Assembly: GCA_965203965.1 (NCBI GenBank)
Contig: CBDBDR010000017.1
Span: 512,001-576,000, forward strand
From: Thermodesulfobacteriota bacterium
GTDB lineage: Bacteria > Desulfobacterota_D > UBA1144 > Nemesobacterales > JAJCZQ01
DNA length: 64,000 nucleotides
Direction: 5' to 3'
Shown: positions 49,072 through 54,916 of the stretch, piece after piece
How the letters are laid out: each line of letters begins with the position of its first letter
How positions within the stretch are numbered: the first letter of the stretch is position 1
Position numbers and translations under genes: made by a program
Notes under the pieces: model-generated
The model's input: the letters and a program-made list of their open reading frames with translations, nothing else
What the model was told of the DNA's origin: nothing
Databases searched by the model: none

Positions 49072-50541
49072 TCACTCTATTCTGTAGTTTGGAGCCTCAT
49101 TCGTAATAATCACGTCATGCACGTGACCTTCTTTGAACCCGGCATTTGTAATTTTTATGAAATTAGCACTGCTTCTGAGTGTTTTTAAATTTTTACAACC
49201 CATATAGCCCATGCCGGATTTCAAACCACCGACAAGCTGGTAAATTACTCCACCCAACGAGCCTTTATATGGCACCCTTCCCTCTATACCTTCCGGAACC
49301 AATTTGGATTCAATCATTTCGTCCTGTGCGTAACGGTCTTTACTGCTGCCCTGCTTCATTGCTTCTATGGATCCCATTCCCCTGTAAACCTTATAAGTTC
49401 TCCCTTGAAATAAAACCGCCTCACCAGGAGCTTCATTTGTTCCTGCAAACAAATTGCCGATCATGACAGAGTAAGCTCCAAATGCGAGGGCTTTTGTAAT
49501 ATCACCTGAATATTTTATTCCACCGTCTGCAATTATTGGAACTTTTTTCTTCTCGCTAGCTTTGAACACTTCATTAATTGCAGTTACCTGCGGAACTCCA
49601 ATGCCGGAAATTATCCTAGTAGTGCATATTGAACCGGGACCAACTCCCACTTTTAGAGCATCTGCCCCTGCTTTAATCAATGCTTCTGCCGCATCAGAAG
49701 TTGCAATATTACCAGCCAGTACCTCAATATCTTTAAAGTTTTTCTTTATATCTTTAACGCTGTCTATAACCCTCTTGGAATGAGCATGGGCTGTATCAAC
49801 AGCAATAAAATCGCAGCCCACTTTGATCAGTTGTTCAACTCTCTCATCTCTTTCAGTACCCACACCAACTGCGGCACCACATCTGAGCCTTCCCATATCA
49901 TCTTTAGAAGCATTTGGAAATTTTTTTATTTTTTCAATATCCTTCATGGTTATCAAACCGCGAAGCTTGAACTTTGAATCTACAACGGGAAGTTTTTCAA
50001 TCTTATACTTGTGAAGCAAATCCTTTGCACTCTCAAGTGTCTTACCTTCCCTTAATGTTATTAAATTCTTCTGCGGAGTCATTACCCGTTTTATCTTATA
50101 GTCAAGGTTCTTCTCAAATCTCAAATCCCTGTTTGTAATTATTCCACGTAAAATACCATCATCGTCAGTTACGGGAAGACCTGTTATATCGTGCTTGACC
50201 ATAATATCCAGGGCTTCACGTACCAGTTGGTCTCCACTTACGGTAAGTGGGTTGACTATCATGCCACTTTCAAATTTCTTTACCTTTTCAACCTCTGCAA
50301 CCTGTTTCTCCACGCTCACATTACGATGAATTATTCCAATACCACCTTCTTGTGCCATAGTGATAGCGGTTTTAGCTTCTGTAACAGTATCCATTGCTGC
50401 ACTTACAAGTGGAATATTCAATTTTATTCGAGGAGTTAAACTTGTTGATACATCTACTTCATTTGGCAAAATTTCAGAGTAGGAAGGGATCAATAAAACG
50501 TCATCAAATGTCAGGGCTTCTTCTATCTTGCCCTTGTTCAT
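49072..50541 (-). CDS. guaB: IMP dehydrogenase
   Basis: [12 protein letters not shown] pair, [21 protein letters not shown]. Confidence 0.97.
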
Positions 50542-51023
50542 TGCTTCTTACCTTTTACTTTTGTCTTGGCTGGCTTTTTTACATTCGTTGCAGCCTTGGC
50601 TTTTGGTGTTTTTTTATCCTTGGGAGATTGTTTTTTTTTTGAACTTGTTACTGAGGATTTACTATTTTCAGTCTTTGTTTTTTTAGAGATTGGAGCAGAT
50701 CTCCCAATGCTTTTATTACTTTTTTCAACTACTTTTCCTGTATCCATTCTGGCAACAACAATTTCTTGAAATAATTCCACAGTTTTTTTTCTCGTCTCGG
50801 GAATAGCAACTCCAAGTTCAAACTCTATCTCCTGATTTTTTCCTATGAGATGAAAGAATACAGGCAAAACACCTACATAAGTATTGGCACTAACTTTCTC
50901 AAATCCGAGTGATTTAAGCAATCCTTTTTGGAAAACAGGAAGCTGCATGGTTGCAACCTCCATAGTTTCTTGAGGCAATAATCCATCCTGACTTAAACTT
51001 ATTTTTATCTTGGTAGTTTTCAT
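50538..51023 (-). CDS. Hypothetical protein with Lys-rich C-terminal tail
   Basis: 161-aa ORF overlapping the guaB start (ATGA). Confidence 0.65.
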
Positions 51024-51155: not shown

Positions 51156-52577
51156 TCATTTTGAAGACGATTCGTAACCTATGATATCAACTTTGAATTT
51201 TAAACCTAATATTTTATTCCGAGCTGGAAAAAAAGAAGAAAAAGGCACTTTTTCATTCGGTTTTATGTCAGAGTTTAACCCATTCACGCTAGTAAAGTTT
51301 TTGTAATTTATCTGACCTTTTTTATTTGTAAGTTTTGAATACAACTTATCTAAAGCTTGGTTTTTCATTGCCCAGTCTGAAAGAAGGTTCCCAGCATAAA
51401 TTTCCTGAGAATAAACAGCCACATCTTCTGAAATGTAGCCCACTTTCAACTTAACAAAACTGATTGGTTCATTTGAACGATTTACGACGCTACCCGAAAC
51501 AACATATATCTGTCCATGCTTTGAACTGATCCATCTGCCGTTTTCTTCAACAATCTCCAACATCTTCATGGATAAATTTGTATAATCCTCAATCAAGTCA
51601 GTTGCTGTAGATTTGAGTTTATTGTAATAATCATTTGGATTCTCAAAGAAAACAACCACCTCACGTCCGATTTTAGAGTAATAATCATTCGGGTAGACAT
51701 TCGATTTATCTAATAAAAATGACGAGAGTGTGATTAATACACCTGAGAAAAATAATACAATTATCAGTACGAATATTTTTCCCAAAAAACCACGAGACTG
51801 CTTTTGTTCAGAACTTTCAATCCTACTCGACTGATCTGGAGGGTCAGATTCCTCAACATCCTCTGTCATTTTATCAGACTCAGGTTTCAGTTTATCCAAT
51901 ACATCTAAATCAAATTTCAGTTCATCATTTGAAGACCCTTGAGTTTTATCATAAGAAGACTGATCTGGAGGGTCAGATTCCTCAACATCCTCTGTCATTT
52001 TATCAGACTCAGGTTTCAGTTTATCCAATACATCTAAATCAAATTTCAGTTCATCATTTGAAGACCCTTGAGTTTTATCATAAGAAGACTGATCTGGAGG
52101 GTCAGATTCCTCAACATCCTCTGTCATTTTATCAGACTCAGGTTTCAGTTTATCCAATACATCTAAATCAAATTTCAGTTCATCATTTGAAGACCCTTGA
52201 GTTTTATCATAAGAAGACTGATCTGGAGAAGCAGATGTCTCAACATCCTCATGAGGCTGTGTATCATCAATGTCTTTCTTTAACTGCTCACCTTGACCGG
52301 AAGTTGAGAAACTCGATTCTTCTACCAACTGTTCATTATAAGAATTCATTTCTTCATATAAATCTTCAATGTAGCTGTCATCAGTGTCTGACAATGGTAG
52401 AGTAACGTTTTGTTTCTCAATCTCTAATGCTTTATCGTTTTCGTGTTCATCAAAAAGCTCACCTTCAAAAAAGAAAACAACTCCACAATTCGTGCATTTG
52501 ACCTCCATTCCAAGAGGGTTTATTTCCCCCTCATCAAGCCTTATCTCAGCATCACATTCTTGACATTTAATAATCAT
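51156..52577 (-). CDS. Zinc-ribbon (MJ0042-type) membrane protein, DUF3426-like architecture
   Basis: MIIKCQEC...VKCTNC, acidic linker, one TM helix, periplasmic domain with VSGSVVN. Confidence 0.75.
   Translation of the reverse strand: MIIKCQECDAEIRLDEGEINPLGMEVKCTNCGVVFFFEGELFDEHENDKALEIEKQNVTLPLSDTDDSYIEDLYEEMNSYNEQLVEESSFSTSGQGEQLKKDIDDTQPHEDVETSASPDQSSYDKTQGSSNDELKFDLDVLDKLKPESDKMTEDVEESDPPDQSSYDKTQGSSNDELKFDLDVLDKLKPESDKMTEDVEESDPPDQSSYDKTQGSSNDELKFDLDVLDKLKPESDKMTEDVEESDPPDQSSRIESSEQKQSRGFLGKIFVLIIVLFFSGVLITLSSFLLDKSNVYPNDYYSKIGREVVVFFENPNDYYNKLKSTATDLIEDYTNLSMKMLEIVEENGRWISSKHGQIYVVSGSVVNRSNEPISFVKLKVGYISEDVAVYSQEIYAGNLLSDWAMKNQALDKLYSKLTNKKGQINYKNFTSVNGLNSDIKPNEKVPFSSFFPARNKILGLKFKVDIIGYESSSK
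51829..52228 (-). repeat. 129-bp perfect tandem repeat (3 copies plus partial) in the coding linker
   Basis: GACTGATCTGGAG recurs at 51829, 51958, 52087, 52216; 43-aa unit PDQSSYDKTQGSSNDELKFDLDVLDKLKPESDKMTEDVEESDP. Confidence 0.97.
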
Positions 52578-52805
52578 AATTTAAGCAGGTAGATTTCAGT
52601 ACCAATATTAAAATCAACTTGTAGAAGGCTATAAAATAATTCTAATGCAGTCAAGCATCTTTTATACATACAAACTTACCATAAATGTTCAAATTTACCT
52701 TCGAGCATAAGTAACAGAGACGAACAAACAACTATTGCAAACAAGTTCTTTTTTCTGTAAAGTATATTTTTAGTACTAAACGGCAAAGGGGTTAACAAAC
52801 AGAGT

Positions 52806-53759
52806 ATGCACACCAACAACCCTATATTAAAGCTGAAAAATGAAATGGACAGGCTTGTGGTCGGCCATAGCGACGTGAAAATGGCTTTACTCCTTGGTAT
52901 TGTCTCAAGGGAGCACATTTACATTGAAGGACCTCCCGGAACCGCAAAAACAATGCTGTCCGAGATAATTTCCTCCGCTGCCCAACTGAATTTCTTTTTC
53001 TACCAACTACATAGGGATACAAGACTCTCGGAGCTAATAGGCGATCTTGTAATTTCCAAGGAACAGACCGAAGAAGGTGAAATAATCAAGCAGAAGATTG
53101 TCAAAGGTGGAATTCTCAAGTCTGAAATATGTTTGCTGGACGATATATCAAGGGCCCCGGGTGAATCGCTCAACGTTTTATTGAGAATACTTAATGAGAG
53201 AAAGTTTTTTAACGAACCAATCCCACTACTTACCGCCATTGCTACAAGCAATCCGACCGCTGATGAATACTACAATGAACCCCTTGACCCTGCTAATCTG
53301 GACAGGTTCGTTCTTCAGGTAAAATCGCTTGGAATTTCTTATGGGAAAAAATGGAATGATGCAAAAAAAATAATTGAGCTTTATTCAGACAAACCACCAA
53401 GCAAGGAAATACCTGCCGCAGTGAGTAAAAAACTGTTTGATGAATATTATTCCAGAATTGGAGAGATGAAAATACCTGTTGAAGTCCAAGAAGGTCTTGC
53501 CAACTTCATTACAATATTAGTTGAAGACTATGGATTGGATGAATCCAATTCCCTGATCTCCGACAGAACATTCTTTGTAAAGTCATTAAAAATCATAAGG
53601 TCTCACGCACTTATTTCTAACAGGGAATCCTGCACTATGGAGGATTTGAAAGCCCTGAAGTATATGACTGTTTTTAGGATCCCAGAGGAGATATATAACA
53701 ATCTGGACGAAATCTTGAACAATCTTGACCGTAAAAAAAAAGTCAAGATGAACAACTGA
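52806..53759 (+). CDS. MoxR/RavA-like AAA+ ATPase
   Basis: Walker A GPPGTAKT, Walker B-like CLLDD, LNVLLRILNER, ATSN, DPANLDRF, ISDRT. Confidence 0.85.
   Translation: MHTNNPILKLKNEMDRLVVGHSDVKMALLLGIVSREHIYIEGPPGTAKTMLSEIISSAAQLNFFFYQLHRDTRLSELIGDLVISKEQTEEGEIIKQKIVKGGILKSEICLLDDISRAPGESLNVLLRILNERKFFNEPIPLLTAIATSNPTADEYYNEPLDPANLDRFVLQVKSLGISYGKKWNDAKKIIELYSDKPPSKEIPAAVSKKLFDEYYSRIGEMKIPVEVQEGLANFITILVEDYGLDESNSLISDRTFFVKSLKIIRSHALISNRESCTMEDLKALKYMTVFRIPEEIYNNLDEILNNLDRKKKVKMNN
53733..53741 (+). other. Candidate -1 frameshift / transcriptional slippage site (A9)
   Basis: CGT AAA AAA AAA GTC; the -1 frame has TAA at 53732-53734 and is then open into the VWA gene. Confidence 0.6.
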
Positions 53760-53803
53760 GAAAAAAACCCGACGAAGAACAGCTTTCGGAATTTGAACAG
53801 GTT

Positions 53804-54916
53804 ATGCCCGATGAGGAATTAAAGGAGAAACCTGATGAAGAATCCGACAAGGAAGCCCAGGAAGAAAGTATTTCCGAAGTTAGAAAGACTTTCTTTCAAG
53901 CCCTAAAAGAACTTAAAGACAATATTGATCAGGAAAACGACATGGCTCCTCCTGATGATTTGGATATTCCATCCGATCCAACTGGTCAACCGTTTGATGA
54001 TGGTAGCAATGAAAGCAAAGACAACAGTACAGATAAGATATTTGCGAGTAAATCAAAAAATTCCGGCAAAGATGACGACCTGAAAACACCTGGGAAAAGA
54101 AACACAGAAGGTGCTGATAACATTAAGATGATAATGAAAGTACTTGAGGGAAACTTCCAGCGAAATATTGCAAGAAGAACAAATCATCCTGGAGGTGTCC
54201 CGAGAAAATGGAAAACAATGGTTTCTTTTGATGAAGTGGAAGATATTGACCCACTTGAAGCATTTATCTGGGCTGATTGCGCATCTCCCCATCTACCAAG
54301 AGTCCAGAGGAGAGAAAAAGAGAGTCTAGGGGGTGAAATAGCGATCCTTAGGGATGTCAGTACCTCAATGATGGGAGTTTATAGTGAATGGTCTTCATCG
54401 GTTGTTCAGGGAGTTATAGAACTTGGCCGTTCAAAAAACATGAGGGTGGGTTACTTGGAATTCAATCACAAATCCTATAAATACAAGAAAGATTGCAGAT
54501 TTTTTACCAGAGATTACAAATGGATACTAAACATGTCATCTAACACTGAATGCTCCGGTAATACCAACTATGAAGATGCTTTGAGAGAGGCACTTTCGGA
54601 ATTTAGAGGCAGAGGATTGAGAAATAAGCATATTTTATTCATCACTGATGGTATCCCCACGTCCGGTGATTGCGACGTTGTCACTCAGAGAATGCTCGCA
54701 AAAAAACTTGGCGTTTGTATTCACTCTATTTTTATCGGCTCAAAAAACTACCCTAAAATTTTGCAAGTCGTCTCCGAGGAAACTATCGGCACACAATTTA
54801 TTGCATCAAGAGGAAAAGACGGCAATATAAAAATAGAAAGAAAAGACAAAGCAATAAAAAACAGTAAAGAACCGAAAATGCAGGTTGATCCTTTTATAAA
54901 AGTATTTACGAGTTAA
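53804..54916 (+). CDS. VWA-domain protein with acidic N-terminal linker (frame open from 53735)
   Basis: MIDAS DVSTS...GNTNY...FITDG; acidic low-complexity N-terminus. Confidence 0.85.
   Translation: MPDEELKEKPDEESDKEAQEESISEVRKTFFQALKELKDNIDQENDMAPPDDLDIPSDPTGQPFDDGSNESKDNSTDKIFASKSKNSGKDDDLKTPGKRNTEGADNIKMIMKVLEGNFQRNIARRTNHPGGVPRKWKTMVSFDEVEDIDPLEAFIWADCASPHLPRVQRREKESLGGEIAILRDVSTSMMGVYSEWSSSVVQGVIELGRSKNMRVGYLEFNHKSYKYKKDCRFFTRDYKWILNMSSNTECSGNTNYEDALREALSEFRGRGLRNKHILFITDGIPTSGDCDVVTQRMLAKKLGVCIHSIFIGSKNYPKILQVVSEETIGTQFIASRGKDGNIKIERKDKAIKNSKEPKMQVDPFIKVFTS

Follow-up and report, generated by a model that had tools for sequence, protein, structure and literature searches.

A conserved A9–A12 run joins a MoxR-class AAA+ ATPase frame to a VWA frame in a probable recoded gene of the class Dadabacteria

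Frameshifted chlD ('magnesium chelatase') genes combine an AAA+ module, an acidic linker and a C-terminal VWA (von Willebrand factor A-type) domain bearing a metal ion-dependent adhesion site (MIDAS). In these genes, a poly-A tract marks where the AAA+ module ends and what follows is encoded in the -1 frame; they give two products that share the N-terminal ATPase, and have in-frame fused homologues in other species (PMC3711429; PMC9227772; reviewed in PMC5009743). When chlD poly-A tracts were placed in reporters in Escherichia coli, A11, A9 and A7 yielded 63, 40 and 10% shifted product, respectively (PMC3711429). Another AAA+ gene, dnaX of Thermus thermophilus, contains an A9 run at which transcriptional slippage makes about half of the product shorter than the standard one (PMC1088944). 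MoxR ATPases, by comparison, are described with separate VWA partners, as in NorQ/NorD, CbbQ/CbbO and RavA/ViaA (PMC13036017; PMC9976466); the pore of the NorQD hexamer is occupied by one VWA finger (PMC13036017), and the VWA domain of CobT repositions to the pore of the CobS hexamer (bioRxiv 10.64898/2026.10.09.757910). Here we analyze a locus in a stretch of 64,000 nucleotides (hereafter the window) from contig CBDBDR010000017.1 of a Thermodesulfobacteriota bacterium, in which the open reading frame (ORF) of a MoxR-type ATPase and a VWA-encoding frame meet at an A9 run. On balance, the two ORFs probably constitute one recoded MoxR-class AAA+/VWA gene, from which an ATPase and an ATPase–VWA fusion would both be made by way of an extra A, most likely through slippage of RNA polymerase.

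The layout of the locus follows that of the frameshifted chlD genes in its AAA+ module, acidic linker and C-terminal VWA domain with MIDAS, in the poly-A tract at the end of the AAA+ module, in the -1 frame of the downstream part and in the existence of in-frame fused homologues, and its two predicted products would likewise share the N-terminal ATPase. At the DNA level it departs from chlD in that fused alleles, too, retain the run and contain hidden stops. The ATPase ORF terminates in CGT AAA AAA AAA GTC AAG ATG AAC AAC TGA, with the A9 at 53733–53741, while the -1 frame is closed by a TAA at 53732–53734 and then remains open until the stop at 54914–54916; its translation upstream of the ATG at 53804 reads KKSQDEQLRKKPDEEQLSEFEQV. 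A first-pass annotation made from the letters of the window had described this anatomy, and all of its statements on the sequence were reproduced, including the likeness of two acidic 11-mers in the linker and the VWA N-terminus, which share 8 of 11 residues. The opening of the -1 frame exactly at the run, to which it also drew attention, is true of the window but proved incidental, the frame being open up to 169 nt upstream elsewhere. Its estimate of a protein of about 703 aa agrees with the count obtained when one A is added (309 + 3 + 391 = 703 aa), which is the same length as the closest in-frame homologues; the precedent of chlD frameshifting that it invoked exists as well (PMC3711429; PMC9227772). 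Public gene calls list separate proteins of 317 and 370 aa at the locus.

The class of the ATPase was addressed by profile, sequence and fold comparison. Four Pfam models exceeded their cut-offs, namely bpMoxR (74.4 bits, cut-off 27), AAA_5 (69.4, 22), AAA_3 (45.2, 27) and AAA_lid_8 (26.3, 22.8). The nearest solved relatives by sequence were the Cytophaga MoxR-type protein 2r44 (1.5e-18) and RavA (1e-10), and the same two came first and next by fold when the model of the fused homologue P0007 was compared using Foldseek (2r44, 6.5e-20, target TM-score 0.73). The ChlI-type Pfam model Mg_chelatase reached 18.7 bits, below its cut-off of 20.3 and across residues 18–56 only, and TIGR02442 gave 28.1 bits with a fused homologue against a cut-off of 779. 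No ChlI, BchI or ChlD chain was found at E ≤ 0.001 by sequence or among the top 50 Foldseek matches listed. No NCBIfam model scored above its cut-off, the RavA equivalog NF010054 giving 60.9 bits against 681. The absence of chelatase genes, noted in the first-pass annotation for the window, extends to the whole genome (99.5% complete), in which nothing exceeded the CobN/ChlH (PF02514) cut-off (best score 18.5 bits) and positive controls were recovered. A tetrapyrrole chelatase was thus considered and rejected, ChlI-type models being below cut-off and CobN/ChlH absent; since the genome has no CobN/ChlH, the substrate should not be that of a tetrapyrrole chelatase. To judge from these profiles, the ATPase is MoxR-class and neither ChlD nor ChlI-class, so that the locus would work like chlD without belonging to the chlD family, its kind of recoding being the one known from chlD and dnaX.

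As in the known MoxR/VWA pairs, a MoxR-class ATPase is accompanied here by a VWA domain with an intact MIDAS, and by analogy one VWA domain per pore would be expected. Unlike in those pairs, the VWA domain shares its gene with the ATPase, to which a disordered linker, about 200 residues long in the P0007 model, would tether it covalently, and the Walker B motif carries D-D. The Walker B acidic pair is usually D-E; the D-D found in its place is invariant among the homologues aligned, whether from Dadabacteria, Tectomicrobia-like or more distant. The AlphaFold model of P0007, a natural fused homologue, has a mean predicted local distance difference test score of 70; its AAA+ module is modeled with confidence as far as residue 305, scores drop below 50 exactly at residue 310 (KKK), and they return to confident values in the VWA domain (residues 511–682). 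Given this drop at KKK, the ATPase-only product is predicted to comprise the whole AAA+ module.

The junction was next compared with that of relatives. A search with the ATPase among longer proteins revealed 252 homologues at E ≤ 0.001, and among the best 120 of these 252, which were considered, the closest are 79% identical and exactly 703 aa long, with AAA and VWA Pfam domains in one chain. The in-frame homologue P0002 has KKKSQ at its junction, which the window with one extra A would reproduce identically, and the remainder is collinear, including the 53735–53803 stretch, which aligns along the P0002 linker. At the DNA level, 30 loci from related genomes, 80 from named genome records (mostly titled Dadabacteria, Thermodesulfobacteriota or Deltaproteobacteria metagenome-assembled genomes [MAGs], with a few other labels) and 17 metagenome loci holding both gene halves were collected, and 104 distinct loci remained after the removal of identical copies. 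All 104 conserve a run of A9–A12 at the junction. The split loci comprise 77 with the VWA frame in -1 and 2 (L052 and L113) with it in +1, the latter two lying on contigs of about 3 kb and having a run that differs from that of close kin; the other 25 loci are in-frame fusions. Run length was constant within clades across assemblies differing in contig naming and contiguity, the run starts at codon position 1, 2 or 3 depending on the clade, and the sequences directly upstream of it vary among clades. A census of the whole GTDB order detected the gene in 98 of 101 species genomes (E ≤ 1e-60), with a frame open for 691–800 aa in 17 of the 98 and closing at 289–380 aa in the other 81; fused genes are distributed among the families f7 (13/14), f4 (2/2) and f2 (2/32), and none occurs in f1, f5, f6 or f8. 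The proposal of one locus giving two proteins by a shift at the A run is supported by this comparison, in which the run and the -1 phase are conserved across the whole bacterial class and other relatives are fused in frame. On sequence grounds, we take the conserved recoding site to be real.

The conservation of the run is also visible at the nucleotide level. The run is retained throughout loci whose gene G+C content ranges from 32 to 60%, and in the G+C-rich ones AAA accounts for as little as 0.11–0.20 of the lysine codons other than those of the run (L024, for instance, uses 6 AAA vs 47 AAG), so that three successive AAA codons have a probability of 0.001–0.02 from each locus's own codon usage; the run is present nonetheless. 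When ten relatives were scanned for A/T runs of at least 10 nt, the junction was the sole such run in four genomes (G040, 3.4 Mb; G034, 3.0 Mb; G007, a fused allele, 2.2 Mb; G005, 1.8 Mb), one of two sites in G018, one of three in each of G017 and G012, and one of five in G021; the two remaining genomes have A9 at the junction, G001 having no run of at least 10 nt and G024 only an unrelated A16. Past the run, the alignment gaps between clades are multiples of three, and in an 81-nt window of the largest clade the variable columns number 9, 6 and 25 at VWA-frame codon positions 1, 2 and 3, respectively; between the ATPase stop and the ATG of the clade, the same test has too few columns upstream of the ATG to stand alone.

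Both allele types were found to contain stops in the alternative frames. The ATPase frame of split loci ends 13–27 nt past the run in 76 of 76 cases, compared with a baseline of 42% of off-frame reads that stop within 27 nt at random in-gene positions. In fused loci, the frame at +1 relative to the VWA frame (VWA+1) has a hidden stop within 28 nt in 24 of 25, the exception being L024. It arises where an NTA codon precedes a G or an A, and NTA codons are a minority choice in the fused genes (TTA 3–25% and CTA 3–17% of Leu, GTA 5–12% of Val, ATA 27–57% of Ile). Seven fused Tectomicrobia-like loci, about 55% identical to the window and with an A10 run, have a VWA+1 stop ending 4 nt past the run in all seven, while the remaining frame is closed 11 nt past it in six of them and 20 nt past it in L116. 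Fused alleles therefore look, from the placement of these stops, as if they too were built to give a short ATPase product upon a frame slip, and they resemble Thermus dnaX in that the alternative frames close soon after the run, most clearly in the Tectomicrobia-like loci (PMC1088944).

The allele types were further placed on a FastTree tree of 100 rows, from which L052 (too short) and L101, L107 and L133 (N) were dropped and the run codons were excluded. The tree requires seven changes among the three states, and its starred branches force at least five. Switches between fused and -1 alleles occur within single genera, g13 and g16 each holding both states, and the closely related L042 (A12, fused) and L056 (A11, split) differ by one A.

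The length of the run in the organism itself was examined in read data, all of which were assembled Logan contigs. Two DNA-type contigs from separate studies carry A9, X3 (5018 nt, depth 75) being free of differences to the window and X10 (4448 nt, depth 21) differing by two single-nucleotide polymorphisms and hence representing a different strain. An RNA-library contig from X1 (1468 nt) also has A9, whereas in X13, an RNA library of a fourth study, a 226-nt contig (53721–53945, depth 6) matches the window throughout except for one additional A in the run, giving A10. This contig hints only weakly at A10 transcripts and does not prove them; no meaning is attached to the gaps in X13 coverage (53610–53702 and beyond 53951). 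As independent DNA-type assemblies agree on A9, an assembly error in the run, a concern raised together with the frameshift proposal, is excluded at the level of contigs.

These observations suggest the following course of expression. Templated decoding of the A9 allele would yield the complete 317-aa ATPase, with the stop five codons past the run. In a fraction of expression events, the size of which the slippage rate would set, one extra A would enter the message, most likely because RNA polymerase realigns on the A9, and the ribosome would then read the former -1 frame through the acidic, disordered linker into the MIDAS-bearing VWA domain, giving the 703-aa fusion. The likeness to Thermus dnaX lies in a homopolymer of at least nine A inside an AAA+ gene and in the mixed mRNA pool from which a long and a short product would arise, whereas the protein family and function differ, and the templated product of the window is the short one, with slippage needed for the long one as in the OrfAB fusions of insertion-sequence elements (PMC1088944 for dnaX). 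Sharing the ATPase module, the two products should co-assemble in one hexameric ring, and a mixed ring would bear fewer than six tethered VWA domains. By analogy with NorQ/NorD and CobS/CobT, we infer that such a ring can use about one VWA domain, which the mixing of subunits would supply.

A broader interpretation is put forward tentatively, as one that may hold but on which we would not rely. The run would be a stoichiometry device, in which polymerase slippage, and not the genome, fixes the ratio of ATPase-only to ATPase–VWA subunits at about one tethered VWA domain per hexamer. Because the mRNA pool would be mixed either way, evolution could flip the DNA between in-frame and -1 alleles without loss of the run or of the off-frame stops, as would have occurred at least five times and also inside genera. 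The device would also predate the class Dadabacteria, since the Tectomicrobia-like homologues keep A10 with stops in both other frames.

Several points weigh against recoding by polymerase slippage. A9 runs are common both in the genome of the window (40% G+C), which holds 76 A/T runs of at least 9 nt (69 of 9, 5 of 10, 1 of 11 and 1 of 29), many of them inside long ORFs, and in fused-type relatives (17–60 A9 pattern matches each), so that rarity backs the A10–A11 loci only. Run rarity was therefore rejected as an argument for the window itself, and the significance of its A9 rests on conservation in relatives and not on the run as such. The A10 contig has its run only 12 nt from its end, has a depth of 6 and comes from a different sample, which leaves room for a DNA polymorphism or a sequencing error as the cause; in the other RNA-library contig the run is A9, and minority variants are dropped in assembled contigs. 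Descent from split ancestors could account in part for the hidden stops of fused loci, the loci compared are related and hence not independent as samples, and FastTree was the sole program used to build the tree. Finally, all 77 split loci contain an in-frame A_AAA_AAA heptamer, and 34 of them have A_AAA_AAG as well, making a -1 ribosomal shift possible everywhere, and such a shift would equally explain the excess of -1 over +1 alleles.

This last point underlies the most serious competing explanation, in which the mRNA is transcribed faithfully and the same two products result from programmed -1 frameshifting of the ribosome at A_AAA_AAA (or A_AAA_AAG), in the manner of E. coli dnaX; we regard this as unlikely, though by a degree that leaves it well worth weighing. 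Besides the heptamers and the nearly exclusive -1 phase of the split alleles (77 vs 2), it is favored by the chlD papers, which name the analogous event ribosomal frameshifting (PMC3711429; PMC9227772; PMC5009743). On the other hand, the run is never shorter than nine in the 104 loci, although a bare heptamer suffices for ribosomal frameshifting, and its codon phase varies among clades. Moreover, the run is retained in every one of the 25 fused loci and the VWA+1 stop in 24 of them, this stop lying in a frame that a -1 ribosomal shift cannot reach. No conserved stimulatory structure, known frameshift element or unusually stable fold was found after the run, an upstream Shine–Dalgarno (SD)-like motif being outside this search: RNAalifold predicted 0 conserved pairs across eight diverse split loci, a single-sequence fold of the 99 nt past the run gave a z-score of -0.44, and the sole hit of an Rfam scan of 53500–54000 was a chance one to IMES-1, which at 15.4 bits is far below the gathering score of 81. 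The genome has tRNA-Lys(UUU), in keeping with ribosomal slippage, but also tRNA-Lys(CUU), which should lower slippage on AAG; the tRNA complement bears weakly on the mechanism. Together with the one RNA-library contig with A10, these features of the compared loci lead us to favor polymerase slippage over -1 ribosomal frameshifting, two routes between which the first-pass annotation had made no choice, and both may contribute.

Phase variation at the DNA level, in which replication slippage would toggle between fusion and ATPase-only alleles with no programmed slippage of RNA polymerase or ribosome, is improbable. The repeated interchange of fused and -1 alleles even within genera, close pairs one A apart such as L042 and L056, and an A10 contig that could be such a variant from a different sample are what it would produce. 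A simple on/off switch would not be expected, however, to leave one of its two OFF phases nearly absent (77 vs 2), and some families are fixed in the -1 phase (f8 in 37/37 and f1 in 5/5 genomes), yet the VWA frame is intact under purifying selection, as the 9, 6 and 25 variable columns indicate. In addition, two DNA-type and one RNA-library run assemblies of the organism all show A9.

Two ordinary genes, with the VWA protein initiating at its own start (the ATG at 53804 in the window) and the run merely encoding a conserved KKK, would account for the public calls of 317-aa and 370-aa proteins and for the conservation of KKK as protein even in distant relatives, and one clade has a semi-conserved ATG 34 nt past the run. 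That ATG is without an SD, and several members of the clade have I or T in its place. In 50 of 77 split loci, the VWA frame has no ATG, GTG or TTG between its opening and the S-E-F-type linker motif, and 35 of 77 have no VWA-frame start within the first 150 nt past the run. Sister genomes L002 and L003 have no counterpart of the ATG at 53804, which had already been described as lacking a convincing SD, in agreement with our scan of positions -16 to -3, in which no match of at least 4 nt to the anti-SD complement was detected and AGG lies only 2 nt before the ATG. The linker upstream of this ATG is conserved and collinear with fused homologues, no promoter-like site was found between the ATPase and VWA frames in a promoter and terminator scan (which overall gave fewer matches than shuffled sequences), and three consecutive AAA codons are, as calculated above, improbable in G+C-rich loci. 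The VWA part thus appears, from the aligned loci, to have no conserved start codon of its own, and we consider the two-gene arrangement very improbable. Hardly credible is an assembly mistake at a homopolymer, or the decay of a fused gene into a pseudogene. Although homopolymers are error-prone and the +1 alleles L052 and L113 on contigs of about 3 kb may be errors, A9 was reproduced in two DNA-type runs and one RNA-library run from three other studies, the same phase recurs in 77 distinct loci including single-contig relatives, and neither half is further disrupted, two flagged stops being alignment overreach.

Table 1. Features of the ATPase–VWA locus in window coordinates
Feature	Position	Strand	Remarks
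Two sigma-70-like promoter consensus matches, upstream of the ATPase start	52551..52637	+	Consensus only; weak, 3 found vs 6.6 expected in shuffles
Frame-0 ORF, MoxR-type AAA+ ATPase, 317 aa	52806..53759	+	Product of standard decoding; stop five codons past the A run
Walker A, GPPGTAKT	52929..52952	+	Invariant across alignments A1, A2 and A4
Walker B acidic pair, D-D (D112, D113)	53139..53144	+	Invariant across alignments A1, A2 and A4
A9 run, candidate slip site	53733..53741	+	Frame 0 reads AAA AAA AAA (KKK); contains the in-frame A_AAA_AAA heptamer
-1-frame stretch without ATG, GTG or TTG	53735..53803	+	Start of the acidic linker, including the conserved S-E-F motif; annotated as intergenic
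Whole -1 frame, 393 codons and stop	53735..54916	+	Acidic linker, helical region and VWA domain; would be entered only after a shift at the run
TGA closing the ATPase-only product	53757..53759	+	Homologous stop kept in split loci, hidden off frame in fused loci
ATG taken as VWA start in public gene calls (370-aa product)	53804..53806	+	Not conserved in sister genomes; no well-spaced SD
VWA domain	54299..54793	+	Residues 189-353 of the -1-frame translation; Pfam VWA_2 32.3 bits, VWA_3 31.4, VWA 26.0
MIDAS motif D-x-S-x-S (DVSTS)	54353..54367	+	Intact; D, S and S invariant in the alignment

The genes surrounding the locus were inspected for hints of function. A Zn-ribbon repeat protein is encoded upstream on the opposite strand, and MltG/YceG, ProB and IMPDH genes are convergent with the locus. 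The upstream neighbor differs among relatives (Zn-ribbon protein, Na:Ala symporter or RNase III), while a convergent downstream ORF of about 330 aa, which is YceG/MltG in the window, recurs by its approximate size in the sampled relatives. No client protein could be inferred from the neighboring genes. PADLOC returned only IetA at 17.9 bits and assigned no defense system. MoxR-vWA ternary conflict systems have VMAP, iSTAND, FtsH or a beta-propeller protein as their third core component (PMC7159879); membership in such a system was rejected, there being no third component of these kinds alongside the locus and nothing relevant from PADLOC. The divergent upstream neighbor itself is a 473-aa zinc-ribbon protein encoded by the minus-strand ORF 51156–52577, in which a 129-nt tandem repeat (51829–52250; 3.3 copies, 98% matches) translates into three near-identical acidic repeats of 43 residues; its sole Pfam match is the N-terminal zinc ribbon.

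Other homopolymers of the genome were recorded on their own account. The number of A/T runs drops steeply between 9 nt (69 runs) and 10 nt (5 runs), which suggests that longer runs, of at least 10 nt, are selected against in this genome. It also contains one A29 run (G000:C1:15764-15792, outside long ORFs) and one C18 run. Of the seven A/T runs of at least 10 nt genome-wide, one lies in the window, a T10 on the plus strand at 50631–50640 (A10 in the coding sense) within the minus-strand ORF 50538–51023, where it encodes an in-frame KKK near the C-terminus of a lysine-rich 161-aa protein with no Pfam match and would be prone to slippage. The organism's own dnaX (L192, a 543-aa frame) also has an A9 (G000:C17:592848-592856), located at residue 272 inside the conserved N-terminal region; both shifted frames close 2–7 codons past it, and a shortened product would miss part of that region. 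This A9 is probably incidental.

Two further groups of records among the homologues deserve mention. L034, L035, L081, L094 and L098 (titled Spirochaetia), L096 (Ignavibacteriales) and L106 (Candidatus Hydrogenedens) sit inside Dadabacteria clades of the tree, and their ATPase parts are 68–79% identical to that of the window; their MAG labels may be wrong. The metagenome contigs L130, L131 and L132 are arranged differently: directly after a full-length fused paralogue, which shares about 35% identity with the Tectomicrobia-type query, comes a second ATPase gene (53–55% identical), and these loci have no A run of at least 7 nt.

With regard to earlier reports, full-text searches of the literature on MoxR–VWA proteins and on Dadabacteria gave no description of this site, and the words 'MoxR' and 'von Willebrand' are absent from the main text and one supplementary file of PMC3711429, the second file of which is not searchable. 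The locus would add a second AAA+/VWA family, unrelated in function to chlD, to the small set of cellular genes from which two proteins are made by means of a poly-A slip site, with the site conserved across a whole uncultivated bacterial class. Where gene calls split the locus and assign an arbitrary VWA start, the proteome of widespread marine, sponge and soil bacteria would be misstated. The presence of the run and of hidden stops in both allele types amounts to a natural experiment that may separate transcriptional from ribosomal slippage, and the system bears on how MoxR rings may acquire a single VWA adaptor, a question posed by the recent NorQD and CobST structures.

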